In this document: piece after piece, positions 18,755-51,800 of the stretch
How positions within the stretch are numbered: position 1 is the first letter of the stretch
Layout: every line of letters begins with the position of its first letter
Assembly (NCBI GenBank): GCA_051294905.1
Contig: CM119372.1
Coordinates: 18,726,001-18,786,000 of the forward strand
Origin: Botryllus schlosseri
Lineage: Eukaryota
Direction of reading: 5' to 3'
Length of the DNA: 60,000 bases
The notes under the pieces: model-generated
What the model was told of the DNA's origin: nothing
The model's database searches: none
What the model saw: only the letters and a program-made list of their open reading frames with translations
Program-made: the position numbers and the translations under genes

Positions 18755-18802
18755 ACTGACCTCGCAATCTGACCCAAAATCTCAGCTCAGCGAGTGAATC
18801 GA

Positions 18803-21800: not shown

Positions 21801-21944
21801 GACGTAACTTTTGATCCCAAAGTCCAATTTTCATGAAATAAAGTTCATCCTGTTTGGAATTAGCTCATCTGTGCGTGTACCAAATTTCAGGAGATTTGAA
21901 GAGGTAGTGGTGGAAACATCGGTTGTCTGTGCAGGGAATTGCCC
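18803..21944. mobile_element. 3.14-kb palindromic non-autonomous DNA transposon with Sola2-like termini
   Basis: Left end GAGCAATTCCCTGCACAGACAACCGATG, right end CATCGGTTGTCTGTGCAGGGAATTGCCC; tcga on both flanks (18799-18802, 21945-21948). Arms stay complementary to a centre near 20260-20305. GRG termini with a 4-bp TSD are the described Sola2 pattern. Confidence 0.8.
19907..20664. mobile_element. Central CCCAG...CTGGG palindromic MITE (EnSpm/CACTA-like ends) inside the 3.1-kb element
   Basis: cccagctatcgcagatatcagcaaaaa ... tttttgctgatatctgcgatagctggg, flanked by TA; related half-copies end at 19794 and start at 20777. Confidence 0.65.
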
Positions 21945-23201
21945 TCGAGCTAAAAGTTAACGCTTCATTGAGCAATTTTTTGTTATTAGCTTGGCTTACT
22001 CAGCGGTAAGCGTCGCATAGGTTAGTAATCTATCTATCGTCGCAACGTCGGTACTTTGCGCTGCCAGTCATCACAGTATAATACAAACTGATTTTGGACA
22101 TTGGTTATTTTTATTCACCAACCTCCAATATAACCTGTAGGAGACAAATGAAAGTCAGGGAGTTGTTAATTGGGATTGGTGAAATTAAGTCAAAGCCGTT
22201 TGCCGTTTCAATGGAACTCTCCTGATACTTGAGGGTATCCTTTCCCGAACCGCTAAATTTTAATTACAATATTATTTTCTACTAGACGAGCAGTTATTCG
22301 AGCATACAATGAAAACGAATTCCACAGCAAGGGCTTCGTGTAGAGAACTAGAATGCATAAAATATACGCAATCATAGTTGCAAATGAATTTGGCTTCCGA
22401 TTAAAATTTTAGAGCATTCTAACCTCCGTCCACCGTTTCCAGCACATGATATCCATTCAAGTTACAGATTGTCACAGTAATTCCAGCAGCCTTGAGACAG
22501 TAGAGGTTTGTGAAATATCAAAATATTTCTTTTCCTCAAATTAGTAAATTTTCCTGAGCCCTCACTCTGCCAGAATTGACTGATTTTGTGAGTGATCAAC
22601 TTGGTATGATGAATATTATGTGAAGACGTATGCAATTCACATATCTGAAATGCCGGCTTCTATTCTGAAGGCCTTTGAGCCTAAATCAAATTGAAGCCTC
22701 GATGTTAATTTCTCAACCTCCATTTACAGTGTAATCGCATGAACAAACCTGAGTCATCAGCAAATGAAATCAATTATGAGCTCAGTGAAACAGTATGACA
22801 GTGTAGGAATTGATGCCAAATGACATATCACTGATTCGAACTCCCCATTCCTAATTGCAAACCTTGTGTGACCTTCGCAGCAGTAGTATTTTTGACAACT
22901 ATGTCGTAGATAAATGTGGCATGTAATTTGATGATTGTAGATGTAGATATTACATTGATTCATAAATATGGTGAGATGCATGTTAAGTGTGAAGTTACAA
23001 TGAAGTTGTTGGCTATGTTATTTATCATCGAAATCCTAACCTCGTCCTCGTGCATTACACTCTGTACTACCCGCATTTTGAATTTTTGTGACGGGATACC
23101 ATTCATTGTAATGTTTGTACTAACAATTGCACACGATCAATGCAGCGTGACATTTGAATTGATATAATCACCATACAAAAGGCTAAATACTATGTGTCAA
23201 A

Positions 23202-24686
23202 ATGGCTGAGTCCAATTCAGTCCAAGGCAATGAAGGTTCAGATGTCAATACAAACAATTTACGGAATGACACTCAACTGAGCGACAAACCATGTGAAGCA
23301 GAAGCATCTCCAACGAATTTAGTGATTGATGAAGATGACGAAGGGTGTCCCAAACCAAGCGACGGCATTCATGGCATGGGAAATCAAGTGCATGTGAATT
23401 CAGTAAATAATTCTGTTCCAAATGATGGTTTCCCATCGCACCCTACAGATATGGTTTCGGATGAATCGTTCAACAACAGCACCAACTTTGAATCGAATGA
23501 GCTCCCTAAGAAATTTACCAAAAACGCTAATTACTATGGTACTGGGAGGCTACCATGTCCGTCATTGGGAGAAAATTGGGCAATGGAGCAAATCGTTCGA
23601 CAGCAGGGAAAATCAGCGGGCAAGTATGACACCTACTATTACAGTCCATGTGGCACAAAATTTCGATCAAAGACAAAATTGCATGAATTCCTGGACATGG
23701 ACTTGACATTCTTCGACTACAATTCGGGAAAATTTGTTGAAAACGCTAATAAAGTCAATTCTGTTTCACCGAGGCGAAAGAAGAATTTTCTAAAAACGAC
23801 TAAGCTGAAGACCATCGATAGATCGGTGGACAGCGGTTCCGTTAAATCCAGGCCCAAGAAGAAACTGACTGTCAAGATATGCAATTACAAAAAAGAGCCG
23901 TCTACCACATTCCCATATCGTAGTGACTCGCAAGCAAAAAAGAAACATCATAAGAAGGCCAAAAAGCGCAAGATGCAGTTAATGCCTGGTGATATTATCG
24001 ACGAGGACTCCATGCAAAATAGTCCGTTCGAAGCTTTCAAGCGTGAGGCCATGCTATTGTCAAACTACTTCTCCGACATGAAAGACTATGAAAACCTCAT
24101 CCAATTCACTTGGAATTTTCTTAGCATTGAAAGCAAAACATTATTCAACGATTCCGTTTCCTCCGATGTCAAAGGAATTTCACCCAAAGCATCTGCCGAT
24201 TTAGACAGTGAATGTAAGACCGAAATGAAGTCCTCTAGCATTGAGGAAGATGTTGCCATGGATACCACTGTAGCTAACAGCATCTGCACACCTGCCGTGG
24301 CCAAGCTCCCTACGAAAGTGCTGGATGTGGGACAATATTCTGGTGATGGGGGTGCTGGTATGACTGGTTTACCAAAAGTGTACTCCTCTACAGCTTCTGT
24401 CAAACCAAATGACTCTGATACCATCGAAATTGGTACAACGACATTAAACAGTCATGATCAAGAAATGGCAGATGATCAATCTACTTTGATACATTCCAGT
24501 GCAAATAATATTTCATGCAGTAATTTAAGCGCTAGACTTGACACTGATCATGCCGATAAGACGTTGTTGAATACGGAAGGATCACTTGCTGTTGAGGGTA
24601 ATTTCTCTGAACATAACTGTTTGAAACACAAATTTCATAAAAGGAAATCTCGTGTCCCTGTCTGTATTAAGCAGGACTCGAAGTGA
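23202..24686 (+). CDS. Methyl-CpG-binding domain (MBD) protein, 494 aa, intronless ORF
   Basis: Aa ~116-177 RLPCPSLGENWAMEQIVRQQGKSAGKYDTYYYSPCGTKFRSKTKLHEFLDMDLTFFDYNSGK match the MBD1/2/3-class MBD consensus (CPxL..GW...R..G.SAG..D.YY.SP.G..FRSK..L..L...DL..FDF..GK). A basic NLS-like tract KKKHHKKAKKRK follows; the rest is low-complexity S/D/N/T-rich. Confidence 0.9.
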   Translation: MAESNSVQGNEGSDVNTNNLRNDTQLSDKPCEAEASPTNLVIDEDDEGCPKPSDGIHGMGNQVHVNSVNNSVPNDGFPSHPTDMVSDESFNNSTNFESNELPKKFTKNANYYGTGRLPCPSLGENWAMEQIVRQQGKSAGKYDTYYYSPCGTKFRSKTKLHEFLDMDLTFFDYNSGKFVENANKVNSVSPRRKKNFLKTTKLKTIDRSVDSGSVKSRPKKKLTVKICNYKKEPSTTFPYRSDSQAKKKHHKKAKKRKMQLMPGDIIDEDSMQNSPFEAFKREAMLLSNYFSDMKDYENLIQFTWNFLSIESKTLFNDSVSSDVKGISPKASADLDSECKTEMKSSSIEEDVAMDTTVANSICTPAVAKLPTKVLDVGQYSGDGGAGMTGLPKVYSSTASVKPNDSDTIEIGTTTLNSHDQEMADDQSTLIHSSANNISCSNLSARLDTDHADKTLLNTEGSLAVEGNFSEHNCLKHKFHKRKSRVPVCIKQDSK

Positions 24687-26059: not shown

Positions 26060-28154
<2,095 letters not shown>

Positions 28155-30194
28155 TTAAAGCAAAAACATTTTATTTTCAGTGATATAGTCAGATACGGTA
28201 TTACGAAGCTATAGGCATATCTGGGGAATCCAAATAAAAAAAATAAAAAAACAGACGGCTTGGAATTTCCACGCACTCTACATGCACACTGAATGCTGTC
28301 ATACCATAAATTTTGACTACGTCGTTGAGTCGATTTAGTTACAATTAAGATTGACCGATTTCAAACTTTATTCAACGTCCCATTACAAATTAACAACGTC
28401 ACGCCCACATTCGAAATTCCAAACTCCTGGTAGATAAGTGGTGCGACGCAATCGGTATAAATATCACGTTATTTTGCAATTGTTCTGAACAATGGCAGTT
28501 TAGAATTCGTGCCAATAGCTTTGGCATATGGGATATGAAACTGTTTTTACAAAATTTGTGGCCACAGGCTATAAAATGACCCAAATTGTCGCCGCATTTG
28601 TTGGGTTTCAAGTGATAAGCATTACACAAATATACTTGGGCTATAGTACTAATCAAATCTCATGCAAATTTGCTTTTGCTTGGATTTCAGCAGTGTTGAG
28701 ATCAAGTCACCACCTTTGAGCTGGGTTGGAATACTGTTACATTTAGCGTAGATAATTTGGGGTGCCAAGACGGCTCTCGGCGTCACACCTATCTTTAGTC
28801 AGTAGTATCTTTATGGTGCACGAGACACCGATTCCATATTGGCCTTCAAGGCACAAGTCACATCAATACATTTCACATTTTGACACGAGTCAAGCACTGG
28901 ATATTCGGAGGCGACTCGGCACATGACATAGCATTTCGCAAGAAGATTGAAGTACGGATTGTCAATCATGCAAGCCAAATCCAGGACTCGAGATTCGCAT
29001 TGAGACTGGACCACATTGAGATTGGACTGATTATAGTATAACAGCTGTACAAGGTAGGCCTATTATAGCATTAGCCTATAACAAAACACCATAAAAACAA
29101 AAAATCACACGTGCGCGGGGGATTTTAAAAATCCACTCAACGCATCTGTGAACTAAATACACAATTATGAAGGTCCGATATCCGTTTCAAGAAATCCTGA
29201 AAATCAGGATCTTCAGCTTTGGATGTATAGGCCTCTATGTAAAATGCAGATTTGTAACAGCTATTCTACAATGAATCTTATGGATTCATACTATATTTGG
29301 ATATTGTTAAGGTTTCTCTATTCGATCAGCATTACTTAACTAGGGCCTAGGCCAATTCGTCGAATTCTCCAATCAACAGTAAAAGTTTGATGTGTAAGAT
29401 AATATAGGACATTACGTATACTCAAGACACATCATCGTTATCTTAGGCAAAGTCTATGATTAGCATGTCACAAATCGAAATACAGCAGTCAATATTACCA
29501 CAGGGTCGGAAGCGTAAAACAATCTAGCCTGAAGTCCTGAAACAACACGTAACAAATTCACTAGATAGGAGAAGGTCGGAAAATAAGCGCTAATGAAGAA
29601 TTCGGACTTTCTACAGGGTTGGTGCGATGACATGCAAAATAAGGTCAAAAACATGCAAAATAAGGTCAGTCGCGACATGCAAAATAAGGTCAGTCACATG
29701 CAAAATAAGGTCAGTCGCGACATGCAAAATAAGGTCAGTCCGCGCATAAATCCAAATCTGTACTTCAATTACAAATCCAACTCTTTTTCTTATGAAAACG
29801 AAATTCAAAATATCTTTCCTGTATAGTAGCCTACTTTCAACATTGAAATTCCTTGTCTATATCCTAAATTTTAAGATGTTTCAATCAAAAGATAATCATG
29901 ATTTTCTTGATTATGAAGTCAGTCGCATGTACAATATTATTATCAGTCCGCGCATAAATCCAAATCCTTATTTCAATTACAAATTCAACTCTTTCTCTTA
30001 TGAAAAATAAATTTAAAATATCTTTCCTACCATGATTGACATTCCTCATCTATATCCTAAATCGCTGAAGATGTTTCAACAAAATATAATCAGACGATTA
30101 TTACGATTACGAGGTGAGCCGCATATAGAATATAAACAGTACGCGTATATATCCAAATATTTACTTCAAATCCAACTTTTTTTTCTTATGCCAC

Positions 30195-31105
30195 TGACCT
30201 TAGTCTGCACTCTTCATGTGGCGACTGACCGTGTTTCGCATGCGACTGACCTTATTCTGCATGTGACTGACCTTATTTTGCATGTCGCGATTGACCTTAT
30301 TTTGCATGTGACTGACCTTATTTTGCATGTGACTGACCTTATTTTGCATGCGACTGACCTTATTTTGCATGTCGCGATTGACCTTATTTTGCATGTGACT
30401 GACCTTATTTTGCATGTGACTGACCTTATTTTGCATGTCGCGATTGACCTTATTTTGCATGTGACTGACCTTATTTTGCATGTCGCGATTGACCTTATTT
30501 TGCATGTGACTGACCTTATTTTGCATGTGACTGACCTTATTTTGCATGTGACTGACCTTATTTTGCATGTCGCGATTGACCTTATTTTGCATGTGACTGA
30601 CCTTATTTTGCATGTCGCGATTGACCTTATTTTGCATGTGACTGACCTTATTTTGCATGTCGCGATTGACCTTATTTTGCATGTGACTGACCTTATTTTG
30701 CATGTGACTGACCTTATTTTGCATGTGACTGACCTTATTTTGCATGTCGCGATTGACCTTATTTTGCATGTGACTGACCTTATTTTGCATGTCGCGATTG
30801 ACCTTATTTTGCATGTGACTGACCTTATTTTGCATGTCGCGATTGACCTTATTTTGCATGTGACTGACCTTATTTTGCATGCGACTGAACTTATTCTGCA
30901 TATCGTGACTGACCTTATTTTGCATGCGACTGACCTTATTTTACATGTGACTGACCTTATTTTGCATGAGACTGACCATTCTGCATGTCGCGACTGACCT
31001 TATTTTGCATGCGACTGACCTTATTCTGCATGTGGCGACTGATCTTATTTTGCATGTGACTGACCTATTCTGCGTGTAACGACTTATTGCGACCTTATTT
31101 TGCAT
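30195..31105. repeat. Left inner tandem array of 21/24-bp units (tgaccttattttgcatgtgac / tgaccttattttgcatgtcgcgat)
   Basis: About 40 direct units; the source of the spurious LILHVTD and MQNKVSH ORFs. Confidence 0.95.
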
Positions 31106-31111
31106 ATCGCC

Positions 31112-31703
31112 CAGGGTTGTAATGACTCGAGTCATGACTCGACTCGAGTCTGACTCGAGTCACGATTTTATGATGACTCGACTTGACTCGAGTCATTTTC
31201 TCAAAATACGGAAATGACTCGACTCGAGTCAATCTGTGTATTGACTCGACTTGGACTCGAGTCATTGGGCATGACTCGAACCAAGTCATATGACTCGAGA
31301 CTCAGACGGTCAAGACCGACATTTCATTGTAATTTCGAAGCATAGTAAAGTAACCACACTATTGGGATTTCGTCTATTGGTACTGGTACTTGAAAATGCG
31401 ATCAGAAACTGCTAAAAACGAGGAAAATTAATATATTTTAAAAACGAGCCATTCGATATCGCCAACCAGAGTTATAAAAAGTGGATTTAACAATATTTTA
31501 ACTGGAAAACTGGACAGTCAACACAATGACTTGGACTCGACTCGAGTTATAATACCATGACTCGGACTCAAACCTCTGCTCGCTGACTTGGACTCGGACT
31601 TGACTCGGTGGTGACTTGAAAATGACTCGACTTGTTTCGAGTAAAAACTATAAAAGTGAGATTGACTTGTGACTCGGAGCCTTGAGACTTGGTTACAACC
31701 CTG
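31112..31703. mobile_element. GACTCGAGTC-rich hAT-like MITE inserted at the inner end of the left FB arm
   Basis: cagggttgtaa...ttacaaccctg; flanks atatcgcc / atatcacc. Confidence 0.85.
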
Positions 31704-34039
31704 ATATCACCAAAACATATAAATTCGCGGACGGGTATATAATTTTCGTCATGTTTCACGCGGAATATATGTATGGCGTGACCAATCTGCTTCCACTAAA
31801 GTCTAGTTCAATATAATTTAGGTAGTGGTTGTGTGGTTCATGCGCGAAATTTGAGGGCACATAGTCGCTCATATAACGGTTTCGTCACAGCAAATATAGC
31901 TCAGCAATGAGTTTTGAATTCTACGATCTACCACATTTTCAGTTGCCTTCGTAAGCCTAATGGCGTGAAGCGCCACCCACACAATTTCAGTTTAAATTTA
32001 GCTCAACTATATTGTTTAAATAGGACAATAAACAGAGTAGCCTAATTACCATGGAACTAGAGGCGAATTTTTTAGTTAACTGCAACTTGGCGCCCCCTTC
32101 AGAAGCTTTACATCCCCCCAGTTAAAATAACTAGTATAGAACCTCGTAGCAAAGATATTTATAACATGATGCGGACGAGTCGTCAAGCTGTTTGAAATAC
32201 ATTTCTGCCTGGGATGAAGTAACTAACATAAACCGCACATTCCGCATATTTTCATCATTTTGAAACTGCGATGCAATGAGAAGATAGGAAGGTGTCGAAA
32301 CGACTTGGAGTATTCTTTGAAATCAGGCACCACCTAGGCGAAGTAGAGAAGAGGCAAGCACACTAAATGAAAAGTAAAAGAAGATAGTATAGAAAAAATG
32401 GGGTGGCATGTGGCGGCAGGCGAGGTCGATATGTTAGTTCGTGGTCCGGTAATCCTGAAGGCTGACTAATAGTAGGCCTATTCATCTAGAAGAAATTGCT
32501 TGTATTTCGACTTGAATTCGGGCATGCTCGACGATTGTCGTATAGCCGGGAGATGCTGTTCCACCACTACAGGTCCGGCATACTTAGCGCAATGCGTTTT
32601 CTTGTATTCCACCCTGATCATATGGTATTTGTTCTTCGTTTACGCATATGTCAGTTTCCAGGTTTTGACGGGCAGTGAGAGAACATTTATAACTGCTTTT
32701 CAAAACTACTTACTTGAGTATACAGAGTCGCCTAATTCTACTTAAGGATGGTTTTGTCTGCTTCGAAAATAACTTCTAGCCTACTCGTACTTAAGAATGA
32801 TTATACGTCGCTACTTCTACTTGAGTAGCCTTCTTGATTACATCGACCACCTCTTACGGTTCGCAGTGATCAGAGGTCACTACCTTCTAAATTGCAACAT
32901 GCATCTTCGTAGCTAATGCAAAATTACTATGACATAACAAGTAGCTGCCATGTTCGAAAATAATTCGTAATTCGGAGCCTATTTCACGCAGTGCTGGTGA
33001 CAATTTCACTGATGAAAGTGATGCAAATTCATCACAAAACAACTTTTAAAATTGATAAGTTAATTTGTTTTGCCTAAAACTGTCCAAGTAGAAGTGGTCT
33101 AAAACAGTGGTTCTCAACCGCCGGTCCAATATTATTCAAATTGGCGTGGTCAGTTTATCCACGGCTTTCGGCACGAAACGCTGTAATCGAATCTCGGCGG
33201 CAGCATGTTTATCTGGGCCAGGCAATTTTATCTAGTCTAAGCAGAGTTGATAGCGTAAAATTATGTGGAGCCCATAATGAACATATTTGATTACGAACTA
33301 AAACCACAAAATGTCACTCTAGGACAGGGGTGGGCAATTATTTTTCTCTGCGGGCCAAATGAGAAGCAGAAAATACGTTAGCGGGACGAGTCAAAATTTT
33401 AGCTATATTTTCAAGCGTATGAATTTTATTTCTAAATTGGAAGCAGTGAATGCCATTGTTCAGTGGATATGTCGATATATATCGCTAATAATCTCATCCA
33501 CGAAGGCCTCGACGCGACGATTGTTCACAACGTTCACGTTCAGTGATGTTCAGCGCAGGAACTTCGGTAAAACACGTTAGTAGTTATATAGATCGCTCGC
33601 GAACTAGCGTTGTGGCTTATGGGCGGGGTGGTGACCTGCCTCAAAACCCGGGGTGATGACCCCACCCTTTTAGACCCCCCTTGTGGTGGTGACCTGCCAT
33701 TGTTTCTTATGGGTGCGGTGATGACACCACCCTTTCAGGTATAGGCTGCGGCGATGATATACCTTGAAAACTCGTGTTGGTGACCCCACCCTTTCGGTAT
33801 AGGCTGCGGCGATGACCTCCATGGCTTGTTTGGTAGTGAACTAACGTTGTGGTTATAGACCGCGGGGTCTTTTCGCGCTGTGCCTATTGATTCCTACGTA
33901 ACCTGAATAGCACGCCGACTTTCAGATCGGGTTATTCACACCTTGTATACCGCTGTTTCGCACCTACAGAATAGTCTGCTGTTCACAGTCGTGACTTCAC
34001 CGCGATAGCGCAATTTTCGAATCAGTCGCATGGTAATGT

Positions 34040-34600
34040 TTTGCTATTTAGTTTACCACAGAGCCGGTGTAGACGACGATTCGAATACCAACAATAGCCG
34101 CGTTCACATACTAACACTCCAAAAAGGTGTGAAATATTTCCTACGACCACTCACAAGATAGCACATCAGAATACTCATCTCTCGTGGTTTGATGTTACAA
34201 AGATAGGAATCACGCACAAGTAATATTTTGGTAATAAGTTTGTCACATAACCGGCGTAGACGGTGATACCAACAATAGCCGCGTTCACAAACTAACACTT
34301 CAAAAAGGTGTGAAATAGGTTGCAAACCCCGCGATCGCTGACAAGATATTGTCTCGGACATAACCATCTTTCGCGACTTGCTGTTACATACATTCCAATC
34401 ACTCACAAGATACTATTTTGGTACTTAGTTTGTCACAGAACCGGATTTCACTGGTAAAATTTAATAAGTAACGAATAACAGAGCCGGCGTAGACGGTGAT
34501 TCGAATACCGACAAATTTTCACTTATTTCTGCCCCAACCCTAATCCTCTGTGAAGTTGACGCTTATTCAAAAAAGGTGTGAAATAATTGTAAAATCCTAC
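34040..34600. repeat. Degenerate ~190-bp tandem repeat, ~3 copies
   Basis: Recurring ccgg(c/t)gtagacg..gat, aacaatagccgcgttcaca and aaaaggtgtgaaata motifs; the last occurs at ~34122, ~34303 and ~34570. Confidence 0.7.
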
Positions 34601-37600
34601 GTCGGTGACGCGATAATGCATCAGACATAGCGATCTAATTATAGTACGGTGTCGGAATCCATTCGCGAGATGTTCTATAGGTAAATTGAGATAATCCGAA
34701 ACGAAATATTTTGACTTTGGTGTAGTGTGAATTGAAATAGGATTGACAAACATGACTATCAACTTTCCCACAGTCCCATATTGATATTATACGCACATTG
34801 ATTTGAAACAAGTAATGGAACATTGCAACTCTATTCGCGATCCGACTTTTCGTTTGTCAAAGCGACATTTTAACATCTTACCATACTCAAAAGAATTATT
34901 TACAACATTTACAAGTGTTCAAAATCTAGTTTTCACTTACTTGATTATATCGCTGCAACCCACAAATTTGAATTAATTCATCCTGGTTGTATTCGTATGA
35001 TCGGTCTTTTTTATTCAATTGTAAAGGTCGTTACTATTCTGAAGACAAAGTAAGCTATTTACTAATCGACACATAAATGACTTGACATAAACATATTATA
35101 TTTTGAGTATACGAGATTTGAATGTCTGAACAATAACTGAGAAATAATTTATCACAATAAAATACGTATATTACAGCGTAAAAGATGTTTGAATGTCAGC
35201 AACTCTGTACGGTCATAGTTACTACCACTAATTTACCCGACCAACTCGTCATGATCATTCCTGAAATCAACACAAATATGACCACTGACTTGAGTTAACC
35301 ACAAAACAGCATCAAGTTTTAAATCCACTCGTAGCTTACGGATTATTTGAATGCTGGTTATGTTTTGTTGTAATTGAGTTAACGAAATAGTATTACGTCT
35401 CGACATCTTACCATCTTACCATATTCAAAGAATCAACCACGAAAACATTGTCAAGTAAATCCGTTAACCGACCAACTCAAACAGTATCAATACGAAAAAC
35501 AACCAAACATACACGAATCCATACAATCACTAAAACCTAAAATCCATAACGAACTCGGTTGTATTCATATCCCAACTCATCTTTTTTATTCAACTTGAAA
35601 AGTCGTCACTATTCTGTAAGATAGAGGAATTACTACGCGGTATATTCTGCAAGACAAACTAATTATTACTCGGTATATTTTGTAAGACAAAGTAAATACT
35701 ACTCGGTGTGCGGTTTGGGATTAACATAATATGTTTGAGTAAACGAGATTTGCCAGTCTAACCGTCGTAGTTGAGAATTCATTTCTTACAATCGAACGCC
35801 GGTGCTACATTGAAAGTTATCATGTTGTAAACATCCTTATTGACACATTGATTTGACATATGTAATAGTTGATCATGACTTGATTATTAAATTATTTGCG
35901 TTAATTAGATCTGCATTGTGGTAAATGTTATGACAGCAACAAACTTTTCAGTACCAATGTTATTAACATATTAAGCTGTAAAACTATGTGTGTCTGAAAT
36001 GTTCTTGATAGGAAAATTACTCCACCTTGGTAAAAATCACCCTGCGTATCGCAGATATCAGAAAATATTTCCAGTAACCAAGACTAAAGATGACACAACA
36101 ATTTCGTTATTCAAACATTGAACACCCGATGCAAAATGCTTTATTGGTCAAATTCGCAACGGTTAATTGAAACGACTAAGTGTAGAGTCAGTATATCACA
36201 ATGGGACGTCGTTACTATTGAATCCAGCAATTGATACGATTTATTGTCGGGATTTGTGACAGCGCATTGAAACATACACAACTTACAGAGTGTGAAAATA
36301 TCACTTTGGGTATCGAGTACTGTTTGAAGCGTTTGATCAATACATAATTACGTTCGCACTCTCTAAGACGTTGTGAAGTCTACAGATTTACATTTCAAGA
36401 CTTTGATCAACACAGAAGAAATTTGGAATATCTTTACTGGACGCATCCTATTCTACTAGACTTGAGTAATACACAAAACTCATAGCATTAACAAAATCGC
36501 AATAGGTGCTACACTGAAATCTACAAAATGTGTTTGTATTGCTCAAAGTAGTGATCATAAATTATCATTTGAATAAGTAATTGTAATCATAAAACCAAAC
36601 TTGCGAAAGTCATTACCATAACAAAAGAATATTGTAGGTTGCTTGCTAAATGTATGCCGGAAATATTTGTAGAACGCTCACGACCAAAGAAATCGGAAAT
36701 CTTCCTATTGTCATTCGTCAAAGTATATGTTGACACAATACTCATCCCGTAAAAGATCTTACTTGTATGTGATTGAATCGCCGGTAATTAACTCGCTAAA
36801 TCAAACCATAAGAAAATTTCACTCACTCGATGGATATGAAACAGCGTCGCTTAATCGGTCTATATCGTTTTTCTAAAGGTAAATCATATCCACCCAATAG
36901 AAAACAATTTTCACTAGCTTGATAATGAAACCGAAGTCTTCATTCAACGTTTTGTTTGTGTCAAATACTTTGCAATAAACACATTTGAGTGGTTGGGCTT
37001 TACATCATCAAGCTGTAATCTGTAAATCAAGCTTACATCGATTTGTAACTGTATTGTTTACCTAACCGAGTTGTATGCACAGTTTGATATTTTTGTCTAG
37101 TGATTGCAGAACATACCAAACGATACACATTTACTCCCGAAATACTGCATTGATCTCAATTCCCTTTGTCGTGATAATCGAAGTACATTTGTTTCGAATT
37201 CGTAACAACCGGCGTTTCTATGACACGATAAATTTTGACAAGTTATGCTCAGAAGATTGGTTGGATATCGCGAAAAATAATATACTACACACATTGATCC
37301 TGTTAATCGGTATTTTCACGCGAGTCGATTTTCAAACGAGTAAAATTTATTACTTGAGTTGTTCCGCTTACTATATTTAAATGTAAACTCAGCCATCTTT
37401 CAACAACAAACAATGATAAAAAAGTACGCAATCAAACACAACACTTTGTACGACACTAATTATTATTCCACACATCTCATTTCATACTAAGTTTCATACT
37501 ACGAAAGATATTCGTGACACATGAAAATATTCGCTTATGCTACGAACATACGCAATGATTGGTGACGCTTTCAAACTGTCTCGATATCACAAGAACTTTA

Positions 37601-38629
37601 TTGTCTGAATGGGTGTTCATGTATCTTAATAATCAAATAGTTCAACACAGAACTAGTACTAACAGAAACATCAGAGTTGTTTACACAAAAGTTTGTATGT
37701 GTACAGTATGCGAATACCATGTGTAAGTCCAGCGCAATTGCGGCATCCATCCGAGTTTAGTTAACACAATTTACGACACCGAGGTCACCTCATCTTTCGT
37801 AAAACAACAAACCAACCAAGGCTTCAGGATATGTCCTTGTCATAGCAATAAATCAGCTACTCCAACAACAGAGTACATATATTTTCTAGTTACGGAACTT
37901 ACATCTACTTTGCTAACGAAAAGTGCCGAGTCATCACATGGTTGTCCTCACAACAATACAACTAAAACATACTAGCATACAAAATGGTCGTTATAGTTTG
38001 CACACCAACGTTACATCGTACAAGTAAAAAGTCTTGAGGATCGAGTTATTGAAAAAAACTTTAAAGTGTGTCTCCTGCACCAAGTCGTTATCTTGACGAA
38101 AGCGTATATTGCAATACCATGATCGATTTGCATTCGTCGGTCACAAACTGTCACTACTCTAAATAATTATTTTTCACTCAAACACAAAAGTATACTTGTC
38201 ACCATTCGTTTTCATCAAGCATGAGTTCAAGAAACTTACTTACTACGACATGAATAGTTATTTTTATGTTGTGTAAATAGGTAATAATAAATTTTAGTAA
38301 CACTATATCAACATCATCGAGTTGTGCGAATAGATTTACACGTGGTCTTGTGGTTTTAATCGAAGTACACATCCCGGTCTAATGTAGAGTCATCTCTATT
38401 GTACAGCAACTCGGTAATCGAAATACATTAAAATTTAAACAGCGATCTTGTTTCGTCACGTGAAAAATATGTTCACTATCGCGATACTCTGCACATGACG
38501 TGCAAATCCTTTTCACACTCGTAATAGTATACCAACAGCTACCGGCGACAACGTTTAACAACACCAACGACACTAAACATACGATACCTACCCAAGTATA
38601 ATTACCATTTTCAGCTGGAGGTCTGTCGT

Positions 38630-39020
38630 TTCCTAGAGTAACAAAACCCCTTTCCTTTGGAAATCTATTTCCCCCCTGGGTAACAAACCTTTTTCACGTG
38701 GAAATATATTTCTTCCCCGGGTAACAAACCTTTTTCACTTGGAAATACATTTTTTTCATGAGCAACAAACCATTTTCACTTTGTAGTCCGTCGTTTACCC
38801 GAGTAAAAATGTCATTTTCCTTTCGAGATCCAGCGTTTACCCAGTGTAACTATACATTTTCACTTGGAAAAATACTTTTACCTAGAGTAACTAAGCATTT
38901 TCTCTTGGGTAACAAACCCTTTTCGTCTGGAAACTATCATTTACCTGAGTACCAATATACCGTTTCACTTGGAAATCTATCTTCTCCCTAGGCAACAATA
39001 TCATTTTCGTTTTGGAAACT
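38630..39020. repeat. Degenerate ~40-bp minisatellite
   Basis: About 10 copies of gtaacaaacc(t)ttttcacttggaaat-like units. Confidence 0.75.
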
Positions 39021-40374
39021 GACAACCACACCGGACAATTTGATATTTTTGTATATTGTTACAACGGGCAGTGACAAAATATACACCAACAACGACCCCG
39101 ATACATTTGTCTAATCAAATATTCACTTGCTCTGATGCATCCCATCAAAATCATTGGTTACTCACATACAATAACAATGAGCTATTGTACATCGATATGT
39201 ATGTTTTCGGAATTGGCGAATAAAGGGGTTGCCGATATGTCCTTGATGTCCGGGTTCGTGCTTTGGATTTTCCAGAGTCAAAATGTCTGAATAAAACACC
39301 TCCTCGACTTTGGTAACTGGTTGATACACGGATAATGGTGTTCGGAAAACGGATGAATTTATGTTCCCCATCGCGCTAACAACTCCCGGTTTCCTCAGGC
39401 CTGTTTACTATATTGTGTCTTTACTGATCAATACATGTCGCTCTAGTCAGCTGAAACCGGATCACTAATATGAGAAAGTGTGTGGGGGGGGGCCTGATCC
39501 GGATATTCACTCATGAACCAACGACCAATATTCAAGTTACAGACCGTGTTTTGTCTCCATGAAAAATACCAATGCATACACCACATCAAGTACTGAGATC
39601 GTCATCGTGTATTTGTCATTTTTATATCATTTGATATAAATTTCGAGCCCAATAAATTTATTTTTATCCGCTCAAGACACACATACACATGGCATACCCG
39701 ATATAATGAACGGATAGAAGATTGCTGAAACGATATGTCCTGGCCTGATTTCATATTGTTCGCTATATATCTTTAGACGCTTCTTCTTGCTCTCTTTATT
39801 CACTTTATATTTTGTATTACTTTGTATTCGTCATTCACCTGGTTTTTCTTGAAAAGAAGCTGTATATGAACACTGACGTCTCATCATGTATGCGACGAGG
39901 AGCCCGGACATCAATATACATTATGCAATGCCCGTCCGGCCGAAGATGACAGCAGTCTCAAACCACCTCTTTCAACTTCCAATCCGTACATAAGAAGCAA
40001 ACAATTCAGATTTTCTGGCGCCGGCGGTAATGACGTAATGAACTTACGATTTACATCCTGAATCAAGCATTTCTTCGTAATGGTTGGAAGAACCCACCAC
40101 TACAAAATTGCTCCCGGTCTTCCCCTATATTTGGATATGAAATTTAAATCATAATGTAGGCATGCAGTTTGCAGACAAGCAAAATAGAATTTGGATTTTA
40201 AAATGGCCAAAGGAAATAAATTGAACGTTTCAATTTTCACGAGGACATATACCTGAATTTCCATTCGAATTTTGCAATTTCAATGTTGAAAGTATAGTGT
40301 AGGTAGCAAAATATATAGTTTGATTTCAAGTAGAAAAAAATTGGATTTGAAATTATGATTTATGCGCGGACTGC

Positions 40375-41030
40375 ATGCAGAATAAGGTCAGTCGCGACAT
40401 GCAAAATAAGGTCAGTCACATGCAAAATAAGGTCAATCGCGACATGCAAAATAAGGTCAGTCACATGCAAAATAAGGTCAATCGCGACATGCAAAATAAG
40501 GTCAGTCACATGCAAAATAAGGTCAGTCACATGCAAAATAAGGTCAATCGCGACATGCAAAATAAGGTCAGTCACATGCAAAATAAGGTCAGTGGCGACA
40601 TGCAGAATAAGGTCAGTCACATGCAAAATAAGGTCAATCGCGACATGCAAAATAAGGTCAGTCACATGCAAAATAAGGTCAGTCACATGCAAAATAAGGT
40701 CAATCGCGACATGCAAAATAAGGTCAGTCACATGCAAAATAAGGTCAGTCACATGCAAAATAAGGTCAATCGCGACATGCAAAATAAGGTCAGTCACATG
40801 CAAAATAAGGTCAATCGCGACATGCAAAATAAGGTCAGTCACATGCAAAATAAAAGGTCAGTCACATGCAAAATAAGGTCAAATCGCGACATGCAAAATA
40901 AGGTCAGTCACATGCAAAATAAGGTCAATCGCGACATGCAAAATAAGGTCAGTCACATGCAAAATAAGGTCAGTCGCATGCGAAGCACGGTCAGTCGCCA
41001 CATGAAGAGTGCAGACTAAGGTCAGTGGCA
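40375..41030. repeat. Right inner tandem array of 21/24-bp units (catgcaaaataaggtcagtca / catgcaaaataaggtcaatcgcga)
   Basis: Reverse complement of the left array, ~29 units, different unit order. Confidence 0.95.
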
Positions 41031-42829
41031 TAAGAAAAAAAAGTTGGATTTGAAGTAAATATTTGGATATATACGCGTACTGTTTATATTCTATATGCGG
41101 CTCACCTCGTAATCGTAATAATCGTCTGATTATATTTTGTTGAAACATTTTCAGCGATTTAGGATATAGATGAGGAATGTCAATCATGGTAGGAAAGATA
41201 TTTTAAATTTATTTTTCATAAGAGAAAGAGTTGAATTTGTAATTGAAATAAGGATTTGGATTTATGCGCGGACTGATAATAATATTGTACATGCGACTGA
41301 CTTCATAATCAAGAAAATCATGATTATCTTTTGATTGAAACATCTTAAAATTTAGGATATAGATAAGGAATTTCAATGTTGAAAGTAGGCTACTATACAG
41401 GAAAGATATTTTGAATTTCGTTTTCATAAGAAAGAGAGTTGGATTTGTAATTGAAGTACAGATTTGGATTTATGCGCGGACTGACCTTATTTTGCATGTC
41501 GCGACTGACCTTATTTTGCATGTGACTGACCTTATTTTGCATGTCGCGACTGACCTTATTTTGCATGTTTTTGACCTTATTTTGCATGTCATCGCACCAA
41601 CCCTCCTCCGGACTTTCGGAGTCGTGCGCCATCTCTGAATTTTGCACTGATGGCACCAGAGAGCATCTTGACATGGGCCCGATAACATCCAGCAGCTATT
41701 CGTTGCGCTGCTTTAATATTCATATTATTATGTGAAAAATATTACACAGTGCTTATAATTATATTTAGATTTTCTGTTGTAACATACCATTGTTCTATGA
41801 ATATATTACCACAGAACTGCTGCCATTGCATTCGGTAACTAATGAATATCTTTCATAAAATGCAACAATCACTGACCTTCTAGATCTCTTTCAGGTTGAT
41901 TCACTGGTAATATAATGGGATTCAAGTAATTACTCGCATATTTGTTATGGCTGTCTGATCAGTGATTGCAGCACTGGTTATAGAAAATTCGGCAGATGGC
42001 GGTAAAATAGATGAATGATTTGCGCAGTTGTGCATGTGACAGGAGAAACACTAACAAGACAACGGTAACGACGAAGATTGCGCAAGCGACGTGGACAACG
42101 CTGCGGATGCCGAACATAAATCTTGGAGGATAACAACGACGTGAAGACTCGTTTGTGACATTTCTATCGCGCGTTTCGGATACTGATAAAATCTTCGTCC
42201 GCAGTTTGTGTCGGCTTCATCGGTGTCATCGCGATAATCGCAGTCGTTTTTGCAACGTCGACATCTTCGTCGTATCGTCTACTTAGTTAATGCAACCCCC
42301 GTCGTTTTGCCGGACCAGTCGCGCTTTCGGGGTGTTGTTTTCTGTGGAGACGCTGACGCTTGTCATGCTTCGTTTCATTCGGGGTTTGGGGCTATTGAGG
42401 TGGGCGGAAGATCCCATGCAAAGATAATACAAAAATATAAACATAAATACATTTTGTGAAAAAGATACGCGGATTTTTTTAGTCTGGTAAAGTATCGCGA
42501 CAGTTGCACGGGTTCGGACATGCTGCCCTGTCCTGCTGCAATTTTGGACTTGAGATAAAATGTTACATCGCATCTTGCTTTTGTCATTGCTTATCGATCA
42601 TTGTTATCTTTTTACGTGAATCATATGGAAAGAATAATAAACTCTACTGTATTATCTGTAGAATGAATATTGATGATGTGAGGAGTCCTGTTATTAGTCG
42701 AAGAGGCATTGACTCATAATTCATTTTGGGATTCTACTAATTTACTATGCGTAAGTGACGATTTATAATTTCCTGATTTCGTCAATAGAATGCGTTAGTT
42801 GATGGCTTAATCCATTCCTATTGAAGGAA

Positions 42830-45800: not shown

Positions 45801-48800
45801 CGACTATTAGAAAGCGCATGTGCAACCCTCGGTGTTACCGTGTTATCTATATCTGGTCCAGTTTCAAAAAAGGTTGCACACATCTGCAGTACAAGCTTGT
45901 CTTTAATTCTTTGGTTTCCTGTGCCATATGTTAATTGCAGTACGACTAGTTTCGGAATAATTTCTTGGTCTTGAAATTGCGTCAGTGACTTGTTAGCCTG
46001 TGAACTGACTACCATTCCTTCGAACACAGGATATAAAGTCGATGTCTTTGCTTTGCACGGATCATTTGGAGCTAGCTTCTACAATTGCTGATCCCGACGA
46101 ATTGAACTGCGCCGTCTGTGACAGTCCAGGTGACAATGCCTATTATTAACATATGTAGAGAGTTATTTAGAAAAGAAATTGGTTTGCCGCTTGAACAATG
46201 TACCACAATCTATGCTCCTTGCATTGCTCTGATTGCGTAAAGGCTGTTTTGCTGCCTCTGGTACTTGTTCTTGGAACTCGCACTGCATAACGTATTCACT
46301 GAAAGCTGATGCAAACCTACTTGAGGAATGCCTCTTCAAAGGGATGTGTTGTTTCTTTATTAAGTAGTAGCGCAAACTCAAAATGACCCCTTGGTGTTTT
46401 TAATTTGCATTTAATGGCAAGAAGCGATCATTCTGTTTTAGAATGCGGTTGCCTACCAGATGCATACCGTACTAATATTATTTAGGTCTGTGTATAAAAT
46501 TTGATTGAGAAGTGATTTTGTTGCCGCCTGCTCAACTAGCCAAAATCAGACCACCACTGATTTCAAATGTGAAGATGATTCTCATATATCTAACCTTTCC
46601 CACAAATAATTTTTGATAGTGTAGAAATTTAGGCTACACTGATCTTAAAATTTTTCTTCATAATGAGACGGGTTCTGAGACAGTATATAAGTTTCCTAGA
46701 TTCCTGATTGGCCATTTTTCAATGATTGAAATGGATGAATTGTTGCATAATTTTAGAAATATCGTCTTTCAGTTATTTCGCAGAATTATTGTTTGATTCT
46801 GGATCGAGCCAGACTCATTCAGACCTTTGACTTCATTTACGTATTATCTCATTTTCCAGGTAGCAAAGGCCTGTCGATATCAATCAACACTCTAACTAGG
46901 GTGTTCCCCGGATTTATTTACGCAAAAAATCACTACTGATCCATTAGTCCGTCATATTACTATGATCGGTAAACAGATATGCTATGTGTTATTGATTGTA
47001 ATAGTAGGTCCGCCTCCAACATGCATTTGTTGAAACTTTGTCAAGTCTTATTAATATGGAAGTAACTGTGCAAGGCACGGCCGATATTATCAACAACAGA
47101 TGGCTGATGCTGAAGCCTGATATTGAATTGTTCTACGAAATGAACTCAAGAGGGTAATTTACAGTTAAATCTCATTAATTACCCCCTCCCCCGTAATGAT
47201 ATAATTCCCCTGGTCCATATTCAGATGGCATGTTCAGAACAAATTGACCGTGATTAAGGTTGAGTGTTCTTCATAAATAATAATAATTCAAGTGAATAAT
47301 ATGTCGACATGTCAGAACACTTGTCACGGCAGATGTCCAGCCAGTTCAGGCAGAAAAAATATATCACTGCTAATGCAGCAGGTAGTAGCTTTACAATAAT
47401 CTATTGTTTCTTTCTGGCAGGTCAAATATCGGATCTTTTGTTTTGTACGTCCTGCGGCCACCATTATCACGGCGACTGCCTGTATCCGCACGTTGACGTC
47501 AACCCGATGGTGCGGGCAGGTTGGCAGTGTCCAGAGTGCAAAATATGTCAGACATGCAGGTATACCTTTGTTTTATATTTCATCTCTAATGCCCGTCTAT
47601 GACAAGTGACAGTGGCGCGTATATTGATGAGACATGATGTTAGGCGTAATGTCGTTGCCAGGGAAGGGCATATATCTTGAACCGAGCTTCGTATTTCAAG
47701 TTTTCGCCGCTTTTCTCACAAATAGTCCAATTTCATATTTTTTTCGTAATTTCGTCATTTTCAACAAGTATAATGAAAAATAAATACTTGCGTCGAGCAA
47801 TAATGACAACAACAATCTGCATGTACTTCTTCGTTCACACGCTTTCCACAGATATGTGTCTGAATTTTGAGTTTCTGCGTTCTGTTCCTTGTTTATAGTT
47901 CTTGTCAATTCACAATGGATTGATTATTCTTCATCAATTCGAGCCTATCAATTAGAATCCTGCTTGAGTCGTTGTAGGTCGTCGTGACGATACTAGGTAT
48001 AGGTGCATATGCATAGGCAAGTTTTCACTTGGGCTGGACAGAATCGAGTACCTGAATGCTTCGATTCCAAATAGAGTATTAAAATTGGAGTTGAGTTTTT
48101 GATTATCAATCATTATCATGCCACACACATATGGAAAAGCCGAAATGGGTTTGGTACCTTACATTTGAACGCAACTTGATCAGAAATAATTTCATGTGTG
48201 TCTGAATGTCTACCAAAATACAACGCATTGTGACAACGCCGTGGGATGACCGGCACTTCACAAAAATCATTTTTCCAGGTGAGAAACGTATTAGTTTAGT
48301 AATTGTTTAATTGACTTGCACTGCTTTACCCGAATCATTAATAACAATACCGCACTCAAGTTCAAGTACTCGGATCACTGTGCTCAGCCCTAGTCGTCAG
48401 CGGCGAGCAACCCATTTCTACTCTGAGAACTTGCCTATTACTCTAATAGCAACTTATCTCTGTTTCTTAGTCTGTTCAGTGCTTACAGTGCTCCCCCTTA
48501 ACCAACCCTCTTGTATAGTTTGAATCGAACGAATATAGTTGATGCGTTTATATTTTCATGGGTGTGTGGATTGGTAGTGCATTATACCATATCAATTTGT
48601 TTCAACTTCTCGACGCTTTGTATTCAATCCTCTAATTTGGCTGATAATACCAGACTGTAGCATACCGCTATACAGTTACTCGGGTGTTTTTTTAGCAGTT
48701 GTAGGTGTGCGGGAGCGATACGATGCCTTTTCGGATGTATAGTTAACTTTATATTCGTTGTTTGATTCAAGATAAATGTTGTTCGATTAATCTGTCTTTC

Positions 48801-51800
48801 ACACAACTTGCAAAATTTAACAACTCTGAATCATCACTCATACGTCGAAAATTCAATTTGACTTGAATTGTGACTTGACTCGTGACTGACTTGACTCGAG
48901 TCACCTTCGAAAATCGATCAACTTGAGTTGACTCGAGTCAAAATGTGCAATGACTCGTGACTTGACGGTAGCGACTTGATCCCAACACTGCTCAGTAGTA
49001 CTATGCCATTGAACAGGCTATGCCCATGAAGGTGTAGTACAGAGATTCCTATCCATAAATGAGATTACAGAACACGCATGTCTGAAAAGCCCCAAAACCC
49101 GACGCGTTGTCTCGAGCATTTGTGGTTTGATATTGGCGTAACGTTCCGTTGTTTTCATCGGCAGGCAACCCGGCGACGATAATAAGATGTTGGTTTGTGA
49201 TGCTTGCGACAAAGGATACCACACCTTCTGTCTGCGACCCGCCATGACGTTTATCCCGAAAAACGGATGGTGCTGTAAAGTGAGAGTTTATACTTATTGT
49301 ATTTGCGTGACCGCCATGACTTCAATAGCACATGCGTTCTCTCTGTAGATGTGCAGACGATGTACGGACTGCGGATCGAGGACACCCGGCAATGGGCCTA
49401 GTTCACGATGGCACATTAATTATCAGGTATGTCCCCACGTCCATGAGATTTGAGCCGTCGGTTCATTTTTGTGTCATTTCTAAACAGATTGTTGTTAGAT
49501 TTGAGAGAACAACACCTCAAATCAAATGTCAAACTTGAGTATTTTGGCCCTGCTCTGAGCTAAATAATGGAGCCATTTTTCTTACTTGTATTCAAGTGCC
49601 TATGACATCATATTTGGTAATACAAATGTTGTTATACAAAGTTCTTTTGAATTCTCTACTACTTGTTGACTATAACCCCTGTGTCAGTGTCAGCCAAAAT
49701 ATTCAGGTTTATTTCGATTTGAATGTATTATTCAATGGCAATCTGAAGTTCTGCACCTCCAGGAGCCTCTTCAAGCACTGCGTTTTGCATTCTAAATCGC
49801 TTCGATGAAGCTTCCCACTAGATAGTATAGCACAATTTCACAATGTACTTGCTTCGCTCGATAGTAGCTTGCTCATGGCTGTACGAAAATGAGTGGAATT
49901 TTCGTATATTTTTTTAATTGGTAATGGCAGAAATGGTAAGGATGATAATTTGGTGGAATCGATGATGTGACAAAGCTGGAAAAGCAAAATTGTAAATTGG
50001 GTTATCGGGTCCTGATTCCACTCTTCTTGCAGGTTTGCGACAAATGCTACCAGCTACGAAACAAGGGCCATTCCTGCCCGGTGTGCAGTAAAGCTTATCG
50101 CAACATTCCGGCGTCTCGTGTTGAGATGGGACTCTGTACCAGCTGCAATAAATACGTAAGCCTACATGTTCTGGGATTTCTTGAACCATCAGCCTAATTT
50201 TGGAACTGAAAACGGTTGGGAAAACAGCCTATAGATCAGAGGTCTCAAACTCAAATGTGCTCACGGGCCAATTTCCAGTTTTTGATGACGCCGCGGGCCG
50301 CAGCATCAATAATAGGGTTATTCAATGTATAATTTCCAAGTATATAGCCCTTGTTTGACGGAAGCTTGCGGACAGGCATTCCACAAATATCGTGAAAATA
50401 TAATTTAGTAATTATTGTACTATTCACGCTTGACACGGAAAAAATCACATTTTCAAATATTTTAATAAAATTGTTTTGTGCCGGGCATAATTTGTTAAAA
50501 TAATGAGTTATAGACATCATGTGAGAGGATGCATAATGACATTGTCAAACTGTCGGGTTGTAATATTGCAGCTAGTGGACTTTTGACGTGCCAAAATTTC
50601 GTGCAGACCATTTTAAAATCTACTGAAGATTGATCTGATATCAGAGCGGTGTTGCCCAATCCTGTTTTTGATGTATTCGTGATAAGTATGCTATTGTTAC
50701 TGTCATTGCCAAAGTCAAATGAAATCAGCATTCGATTTTGCGTCCGATTATTACTGGAACATGTCAATAACAACTTAAACATAATCATTATTGAGCCATA
50801 GTAATAGCATTGTTTCTGAACTTTAGCGATCGTATCCCTCGTGCTTGCAATAAGATTTCTCGTAGCCCCTGTTCATTTTCAACACAATTTCTAATGGTAG
50901 GGCCTACATAGGCCTACCTACCTATAATAAAATCAGAAAGCACATTCACCGTACTACGCGCGAAGACCATTTTCCAGTTGAATAAATTGGCCAAGAAATA
51001 TTCCACAGCATATAGGCCTAATTCCACAATGCATCTCCCTGATGTGGGGCTTCGTACCCCGAAGGGTCTACGGACCCTGGTTAAGAGCCCCTGGAATAGA
51101 AACGTCCAATCGTCGATCAATTCATTGGTGTTACAGCTGTGGAGCGTACTACTAACTTACTCGTCACCAGTAATAACATAGATGAAGAAAACAAACAACA
51201 CCCAGCAGCATGTTACAACTATACGTCACAGGGGTCTCACAATACCGATGGTTGCCATACTGACCTGATAAGATAGCTAGATACCATACGCAACGAAAGC
51301 TACCACCTTTTGATATATCACTATTCCCCATGATAGTTTCATAGATTGTTGCGTCCGTAGGATTACCAAGTCACCGTTCCGAGTCGCAAGTCCCTGTGTG
51401 ATTTTAACGGTTGCCCGACTCAACTCGAGTCCGTTTTATTTCTTAATCACCCAGTCAATCCGAAATCGAGTAATTTTACGAAAGGTCGCACCAAACCAAA
51501 TCTGAATTTTCAATCACAAATCAGCAATGGGTCAAGTTTTATCATCATGAACTAGAAATGTAATAGCTGATCTTCTACCGCATGGTAGCTTTTAAAAGTG
51601 ATGTGATGGAGTAGTTCGTGGAGATTTCAGTGGTTTTTATAGTAGTTTCAGAGTGAACTTCGAATTTTTATATCTAAATGAGATATGTGGCACTTGACCA
51701 TATTGTCGAATACTTGAAATTTCATAATGCCGTCGCGGGCCGCACAAAATGTTCTCGAGGGCCGCATGCGGCCCGCGGGCCGCGTGTTTGAGACCTCTGC

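Follow-up and report, generated by a model that had tools for sequence, protein, structure and literature searches.

Among described systems, those closest to the 12-kb element that we report here from Botryllus schlosseri are foldback-like transposons of several kinds. Tm1 of root-knot nematodes has 9-bp TSDs, composite TIRs with short tandem motifs in variable and unequal number, asymmetric bases beyond the TIR, and mostly noncoding copies with nested elements (PMC3169594), all of which recur at this locus. In the accessible part of that report, the Tm1 examples are about 1 kb long with ~14-bp motifs, and no opposite-facing second array is described; Tm1 also has a Phantom-type transposase, whereas none was found in the 12-kb element. 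The MULE-related Rehavkus elements likewise share the 9-bp TSD, which is the length typical of the MULE/Mutator superfamily, and long inverted termini with tandem repeats whose number varies; some of the Rehavkus-like termini of Tribolium are longer than 11 kb (PMC6446971, PMC13359780, 10.1101/2024.12.02.626372). Within the same accessible portions, Rehavkus TIRs measure 26 to 400 bp (Table 1 of PMC6446971), in contrast to 716 bp ungapped and about 1.25 kb in total here. Rehavkus has a PHD-finger transposase gene (PMC6446971), which was not found in our element; a nonautonomous copy may lack it. Rehavkus also has a minisatellite before the 3' TIR; our element has arrays in both arms and no gene to orient it. 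The listed hosts of Rehavkus are arthropods and annelids.

Two Drosophila systems resemble the arms in other respects. Galileo of Drosophila mojavensis, a member of the P superfamily, has TIRs of up to ~1.25 kb with ~210-bp repeats inside, internal short inverted repeats (two subfamilies), TIR extension, and its longest TIRs in nonautonomous copies; it belongs to another transposase superfamily, and 21/24-bp arrays in two orientations are absent from the description available to us (PMC3573991). Tetris of Drosophila virilis has three-domain TIRs that reach 1,735 bp and contain ~220-bp tandem units, a noncoding middle of variable composition, and an unknown mobilizing enzyme, but the accessible text describes no opposite-oriented short-motif arrays (PMC4079207). 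Pack-TIRs, Ssk-FB4, and the Ising TE also place foldback ends around DNA unrelated to those ends; as far as the available parts of these sources go, they differ in having identified host genes and known parent loci, whereas the interior of our element consists mostly of nested repeats (PMC8277862, PMC6431247). A literature search on foldback elements in ascidians, including Ciona, yielded nothing relevant.

RESULTS

A single foldback insertion with mirror-image arms

The element is real and gene-less, with mirror-image, repeat-filled ends. It spans positions 29612 to 41608 (~12 kb) of the window, i.e., the whole stretch of 60,000 nucleotides analyzed (contig CM119372.1, positions 18,726,001 to 18,786,000), and comprises, with its TSD, the following features.

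29603..29611, plus strand: left copy of the TSD, 9 bp, matching the right copy
29612..29628, plus strand: left terminus, TAC (3 asymmetric bases), then TIR from 29615
29629..29740, plus strand: left outer array, in which the 21/24-bp motif occurs 5 times
29735..30190, plus strand: left spacer, formed by S1 (208 bp), S2 (194 bp), and a third, truncated unit, S3 (~55 bp)
30191..31111, minus strand: left inner array, facing the other way, with 36 motif hits and degeneration at each end
31112..31703, unstranded: nested high-copy MITE with TSD ATATCGCC/ATATCACC (1/8 mismatch), separating the left inner array from the loop
31704..33578, unstranded: low-copy loop DNA A, broken into by short repeats (about 32030-32950 and 33099-33400); found in runs X1, X5, and X7
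33579..39500, plus strand: arm (~5.9 kb) of a very high-copy element starting AGTAGT, with a Maverick-type end; inner end approximate, 39490-39515
39501..40275, unstranded: low-copy part B of the loop; searches gave no protein relative, and a few RNA reads fall at 39757-40065
40276..40373, minus strand: S', a spacer-like unit and the fourth of its kind, 70% identical to S1 with two identical 17-bp blocks, abrupt joint to the right inner array
40374..41028, plus strand: right inner array, 26 motif hits, without the degenerate inner tail of the left array
41029..41484, minus strand: right spacer, mirror of S3, S2, and S1
41479..41608, minus strand: right outer array, with 5 copies of the motif; the TIR ends at 41604, beyond which lie 4 asymmetric bases, GAGG as read on the minus strand
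41609..41617, plus strand: right copy of the TSD, 9 bp, matching the left copy

The locus lies between two divergently read chromatin genes, RBBP4-like and KMT2C/D-like, which it moves apart: the gap is about 2.7 kb without the element and 14.7 kb with it.

The two copies of CGGACTTTC are identical and were the best match among all offsets tried; a 9-mer match has a chance of 5e-6, or 2.5e-4 with 49 offsets allowed. Separate TSDs, sought near the inner ends of both arms, gave no match within 2 mismatches, and neither inner end has a second terminus, which speaks for a single insertion, as the first-pass annotation had assumed. A candidate decayed terminus at the inner end of the left arm was dropped, its letters fitting a worn array unit equally well. 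Scans with the terminus and the motif returned 0 matches in metagenome contigs and 0 in viral contigs.

That annotation had also described a 9-bp TSD, asymmetric extreme ends, near-identical arms, spacers of duplicated ~205-bp units, inner arrays of ~910 versus ~650 bp, and opposite-facing arrays by which either arm can self-fold, all of which hold up on measurement. The bases beyond the TIR are TAC on the left versus GAGG on the right. Over their ungapped stretch of 716 bp (29615-30330 versus 40889-41604), the arms show 5 differences (99.3% alike). A 16-nt core motif occurs five times in each outer array and 36 and 26 times, respectively, in the left (921 bp) and right (655 bp) inner arrays, both of which run opposite to the outer ones; it is found nowhere else in the window, and the order of array units also differs between the arms. 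Each spacer consists of two full units (77% alike) and the partial third. Because its outer and inner arrays face opposite ways, an arm can fold on itself: within one arm, the two arrays give an ungapped alignment of 112 bp with 4 mismatches, and 29612-30420 has a predicted self-fold of -159.8 kcal/mol (z -15.6). Long modular TIRs that hold tandem repeats, with repeat numbers unequal between arms, are traits of the foldback structural class, another of which is a middle segment that differs from copy to copy.

The S' unit and the origin of the right arm

Inside the inner end of the right arm, the first-pass annotation had overlooked S'. The right inner array matches the first 670 bp of the left inner array, then stops abruptly and adjoins S' exactly where the outer array would start. 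By analogy with TIR extension in Galileo, this layout suggests that a truncated copy of the left arm now forms the right one, overlying an older end. Galileo copies lengthen a TIR by copying internal sequence of the other end, and the accessible part of the source gives TIRs 98 to 100% alike within a copy versus 92 to 97% between copies (PMC3573991). The 70% identity of S' to S1 is, however, little lower than the 77% between S1 and S2, and S' may be an ordinary family paralogue. If the right arm was copied from the left, as it looks, arm identity would provide no date for the insertion.

Loop content

Two nested elements, likewise overlooked before, fill 70% of the 9,262-bp loop. The smaller is the 0.6-kb MITE, which we take to be hAT-like from its CAGGG ends and 8-bp TSD. 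The larger (33579-39500) accounts for about 5.9 kb, or 64% of the loop. It begins with 5'-(AGT)2, the end motif of Maverick/Polinton-type elements (PMC8097293). Neither a matching reverse end with a partner TIR and 6-bp TSD in the loop nor a partner end elsewhere in the window was found, which we read as truncation. Pfam searches of the six read-through frames of the loop detected none of the Maverick/Polinton core genes (pPolB, integrase, capsid, ATPase), and the window holds no parent locus of the low-copy loop DNA.

The same Pfam search of the whole loop returned no family of any kind, which agrees with the first-pass view of an element that lacks a visible transposase and is nonautonomous, and Rfam returned none in the window. 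When twelve frames of the low-copy parts were searched, Pfam yielded no more than three hits, weak and below cutoff. Word-based searches with three minus frames of part B found nothing, being weak negatives of one length class each; for the plus frames and for low-copy part A, the search was confined to Pfam. There is no stop-codon deficit that would mark a coding frame across most of the loop. Three phmmer hits to one minus frame of 39501-40199 (E 1e-6 to 9e-4) were rejected as chance because they involve internally repetitive proteins over short stretches of 27 to 44% identity, and a PHD-like relic picked out by eye near 39500-39600 (minus strand) was supported by neither Pfam, phmmer, nor word-based searches.

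Copy levels in three DNA runs

The loop was cut into 30 bins and compared, over the loop only, with contigs of the DNA runs X1, X5, and X7. High-copy bins, defined as >20x the lowest bin, numbered 26/30 in X1 and X5 and 25/30 in X7, and the high-copy plateau begins at the AGTAGT end. The low-copy loop DNA occurs in all three runs at 98 to 99.7% identity (1/332, 10/534, and 6/1116 differences in the contigs listed) and at a depth of about one locus. X7 record 20 matches 33353-33579 exactly and then departs from the stretch for 41 letters, apparently without the Maverick-type junction; X5 record 12 continues 25 letters into the Maverick-type end, below the 31-letter bridging rule. The Maverick-type insertion, at least, appears to postdate the low-copy loop DNA. 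Differences from the listed contigs amount to 53/602 for the MITE and 10/617 for the Maverick-type arm, versus 5/716 between the arms, with age estimates biased (upward for the MITE) by the use of the longest contigs only. With the comparison confined to the loop, the low-copy DNA of the other samples could sit at a donor locus elsewhere.

DISCUSSION

We somewhat favor the view that the locus is a nonautonomous Foldback cut-and-paste transposon, inserted once and probably long-resident, whose interior was filled later and whose arms are late products of left-to-right copying. It probably works like a nonautonomous Mutator/Foldback element of the Tm1/Rehavkus type, an assignment made by structural analogy; no transposase was found that ties this family to Mutator. 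A Foldback-type transposon inserted once between the two divergently read genes, as the common 9-bp TSD shows; a Mutator-type enzyme supplied in trans would have bound the repeated 21/24-bp motif. The element has probably been resident for so long that it is now common in the population. Meanwhile the interior, a mosaic of copy levels, would have gathered MITEs and a palindromic Maverick-type element, and a later deletion would have taken the second arm of the latter and neighboring loop DNA. The long near-identical arms would be a late product: a break near the right end may have been repaired by inward copying of the left arm (outer array, spacers, and about 650 bp of inner array), with the copy rejoining at the old right-hand spacer S'. 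The opposite-facing left inner array would have preexisted as the outcome of an earlier deletion or inversion within the element, and inner array length would shift by slippage. The mini-foldback arms would thus be a by-product of repair and repeat turnover. A perfect TSD nevertheless fits a young insertion better, its chance of staying unchanged being 0.44 to 0.83 at 4.5 to 1% divergence per lineage.

That perfect TSD and the 99.3% identity of the arms suit a possible but, to us, rather doubtful history in which all 12 kb arrived together in a recent move out of a donor locus also present in other individuals, either as a remobilized, old, insertion-laden copy or as a Pack-TIR or composite of two mini-foldbacks around host DNA. 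There are precedents in the accessible parts of two reports: multicopy Ssk-FB4 is a case of FB4 with a host gene on board (PMC8277862), and in the Ising TE large segments are moved by pairs of FB elements (PMC6431247). The one-locus depth of the low-copy DNA in other runs suits a donor just as well. Against recent movement, the inner ends have neither a second terminus nor a TSD, the joint between left arm and loop is older than the MITE insertion, and no second copy of the 12-kb unit is known; even if the idea were true, the "cargo" would be mostly nested repeats. A stronger version, in which the self-folding arms are functional modules with transposase-binding arrays both ways, a pair of which takes up intervening DNA, seems improbable. 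The unit would then have moved recently, with low-copy host DNA and half a Maverick-type element, between the RBBP4-like and KMT2C/D-like genes, where an inner end may supply transcripts.

The favored history could also hold with a mobilizing enzyme that is not of the Mutator type, Foldback structure having arisen in several superfamilies. The available text of PMC3169594 names P-type (Galileo) or MULE transposases for FB-like elements, no transposase relic was found in the loop, and the TIR is longer than those of Rehavkus, but the 9-bp TSD and the short asymmetric bases beyond the TIR are described for Mutator-like elements, and we consider another enzyme unlikely. It is far less credible that two mini-foldbacks inserted independently on each side of native host DNA. 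Each arm is indeed self-complementary, and the low-copy loop DNA, common to the runs, resembles ordinary MITE-littered host DNA, but the outer ends share an exact 9-mer at a chance of 2.5e-4 or less and the inner ends lack both a terminus and a TSD match. Errors arise easily in long inverted repeats with tandem arrays, and the read comparison covers the loop, not the arms; still, an assembly or read fold-back artefact is scarcely to be believed of arms that lie 9 kb apart, differ at 5 sites and in unit order, and have an exact TSD outside.

The first-pass reading of a Foldback/Mutator-like, nonautonomous single insertion is therefore kept, and its two further claims are not. A recent insertion is unsafe because it rests on arm identity: the arm/loop joint is split by a MITE with an altered TSD, the low-copy DNA is present in three of three runs, and the right arm is an apparent late copy. 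A large-cargo vehicle fits poorly with a loop that is 70% nested elements and high-copy in 25 to 26 of 30 bins. The element looks like an ordinary, probably long-resident example of a kind already known, and nothing here amounts to a new type of system.

If the favored history is true, identity between foldback arms is a sign of copying from one arm to the other and cannot serve as an insertion clock, and the locus shows how a single repair step can build a long composite arm. In the improbable case that the arms are functional modules and the unit moved recently, it would be a polymorphic Pack-foldback with large cargo that acts on two core chromatin genes. Presence or absence of the element could affect the expression of these flanking genes, which is testable.

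Element boundaries and arm anatomy

The 9-mer CGGACTTTC lies at 29603-29611 and 41609-41617, immediately flanking an 11,997-bp foldback element, and ranks as the top TSD among all offsets tried (chance 5e-6, or 2.5e-4 allowing 49 offsets). Comparison of the paired arms (29615-30330 and 40889-41604) shows 5 differences over 716 positions. Each outer array holds five copies of a 16-nt core motif, and the inner arrays hold 36 (left) and 26 (right) in the opposite orientation; none was found elsewhere in the 60-kb window. The 9-bp TSD, near-identical arms, and opposite-facing outer and inner arrays of the first-pass annotation are thus borne out. Its proposal that an arm can fold on itself also holds: within one arm, the two arrays align over 112 bp with 4 mismatches, and the element's first 809 nt self-fold with a z of -15.6 (versus 20 shuffles). 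The 21- and 24-bp units follow a different order in the left and right inner arrays, whose 24-bp variant is not used by the outer arrays.

Two independent insertions, one per arm, might have left separate TSDs. The 9-mer has no match at two or fewer mismatches near either inner end, in keeping with the single TSD proposed earlier, and exact terminus copies are confined to the element's two outer ends. These results make a single insertion far more probable than two.

Nested repeats in the loop

A search of sequencing runs with 33000-40300 listed 24 runs (20 with part of the query; 9 studies). Contigs of three DNA runs (X1, X5, and X7) and reads of one RNA run (X23) were aligned to 31105-40372 at 90% likeness. 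Summed depth, which is not copy number, varies over three to four orders of magnitude across the loop, and exceeds 20 times that of the lowest bin in 26 (X1), 26 (X5), and 25 (X7) of 30 bins.

Segments of the loop
31112-31703: high-copy MITE (by depth; loose contig ends stack at both its ends)
31704-32030: low-copy DNA, found in X1, X5, and X7
About 32030-32950: high-copy repeats (by depth)
About 32950-33578: low-copy DNA, found in X1, X5, and X7
About 33580 to 39490-39515: continuous high-depth plateau (by depth), starting with AGTAGT at 33579
About 39500-40373: low-copy DNA, found in X1, X5, and X7

AGTAGT is given as the most frequent Maverick end motif in PMC8097293. No partner end of an AGTAGT-ended element was found in the loop, and the 5.9-kb plateau may be read as one truncated arm of a Maverick-ended palindromic element. 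Together, the MITE and this Maverick-type arm make up 70% of the 9,262-bp loop. With 25 to 26 of 30 bins being high copy, the large cargo supposed at first is mostly nested repeats. The loop was correctly described as lacking a visible transposase: searches for protein and RNA families gave no match in it, and those for relatives of the three minus-strand frames at its right end gave nothing or spurious hits.

The Maverick-type arm has internal repeats at 33643-33815, 34033-34514, 35610-35707, and 38638-39014 (units of 59-65, 181-190, 33, and 41 bp). Contigs from other copies skip about 630-680 bp near 35100-35780. The GACTCGAGTC-rich MITE family has left at least six relics in the window, 71-86% alike.

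Relics of the GACTCGAGTC-rich MITE family
18134-18351
28843-28918
31112-31703
48694-48990
52050-52591
57523-58445

Low-copy DNA and age of the insertion

In the listed contigs of the three DNA runs, the low-copy DNA left of the Maverick-type arm shows 1/332, 10/534, and 6/1116 differences relative to the window. One X7 contig (record 20) matches 33353-33579 without difference and continues with 41 letters not placed on the stretch; one X5 contig (record 12) reaches 33603, 25 letters inside the Maverick-type end, the bridging threshold being 31 letters. The most parsimonious interpretation is a polymorphic insertion at 33579 in DNA common to these samples. One run may be the assembly source, which would leave at least two independent runs. 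Because the alignments covered only 31105-40372, this common DNA may reside here or at a donor site elsewhere. X23 RNA depth is about zero on low-copy bins, except at 39757-40065, where 6% of the run gives a depth of roughly 3-fold; the reads there run in both mate directions with several differences each and prove little.

Recency of the insertion, previously deduced from arm identity, is unproven. The perfect 9-bp TSD speaks for it, although such a TSD would stay intact with a probability of 0.83-0.44 at 1-4.5% divergence per lineage. Against it, the MITE is located exactly between the last left inner-array unit and the loop, with an 8-bp TSD carrying one mismatch; this arm-loop joint therefore predates the MITE. 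Differences from the window in the listed contigs amount to 53/602 for the MITE and 10/617 for the Maverick-type arm (X7), as compared with 5/716 between the arms; both contig figures are hints, biased by the use of the longest contigs only.

Proposed origin of the arms

The 921-bp left inner array matches the right one over its first 670 bp. The right array lacks the worn inner tail of the left and ends abruptly at a fourth spacer-like unit, S' (40276-40373). S' is 70% like the arm spacer unit S1 (score 87 versus a best of 44 in 200 shuffles), is oriented as a right-end spacer, and is cut exactly where an outer array would start; no counterpart is seen on the left (score 28 versus a shuffle mean of 28.9). 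The left arm would thus be the original and the right arm a repair copy of it, made from the outer array inward and rejoined at S', the old right-hand spacer. The left inner array might have been reversed by an internal deletion joining a left end to a right-end array, or by a local inversion. Alternatively, S' would be an ordinary family paralogue, for which it counts that S1 and S2 are themselves just 77% alike. Under the repair-copy reading, Galileo offers a parallel: internal sequence recruited into the opposite TIR, and TIR likeness of 98-100% within a copy versus 92-97% between copies (PMC3573991). Its TIRs reach 1,250 bp, with internal repeats of about 210 bp and short internal inverted repeats in two subfamilies (PMC3573991).

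By analogy, the 21/24-bp motif is a putative transposase-binding site, a role that a Tribolium preprint cites for TIR repeats (10.1101/2024.12.02.626372). Two 17-bp blocks of S' (40276-40292 and 40357-40373) are identical to S1, the remainder being far less alike; these blocks may be protein-binding sites.

Comparison with known systems

The element is real, well defined, and of an already known kind, and appears to work like a nonautonomous Mutator/Foldback element. A foldback element from Ciona was reportedly described by Simmen and Bird in 2000. Like the present element, Tm1 has a 9-bp TSD, asymmetric bases at its ends, unequal numbers of repeats, and insertions nested inside it (PMC3169594). 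Rehavkus has the TSD and repeat-rich termini in common with the present element, although its listed TIRs are shorter and it has a PHD transposase, which was not found in our loop (PMC6446971, PMC13359780). Tetris has similar three-domain arms (PMC4079207), and Ssk-FB4 and Ising TE are precedents for foreign DNA borne between foldback ends (PMC8277862, PMC6431247). Short-motif arrays in two orientations within one arm had no match in the literature searched, partial texts included, with Repbase and most subscription papers outside its scope; such arms are a modest structural curiosity.

Genomic setting

Pfam domains in the window mark an intermediate-filament exon, an MBD gene, an RBBP4-like WD40 gene, and a PHD-like zinc finger, as befits animal DNA. 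The element lies between the starts of two divergent genes.

Genes flanking the element
26895-28097, minus strand: RBBP4-like gene, at least 380 codons within one exon; start at 28097, 1,506 bp from the element
From 42830 (candidate first ATG), plus strand: PHD-rich gene, presumably KMT2C/D-like; the element ends 1,213 bp upstream

A methyl-CpG-binding domain lies in a single-exon ORF of 494 aa (23202-24683), for which an Atlas search gave no look-alike. A second, unrelated foldback structure (18799-21948) shows no TSD at its alignment-defined ends; its outer arms are 93% alike over 781 bp, and it contains 24/41/65-bp repeats and internal duplications of about 850 bp.
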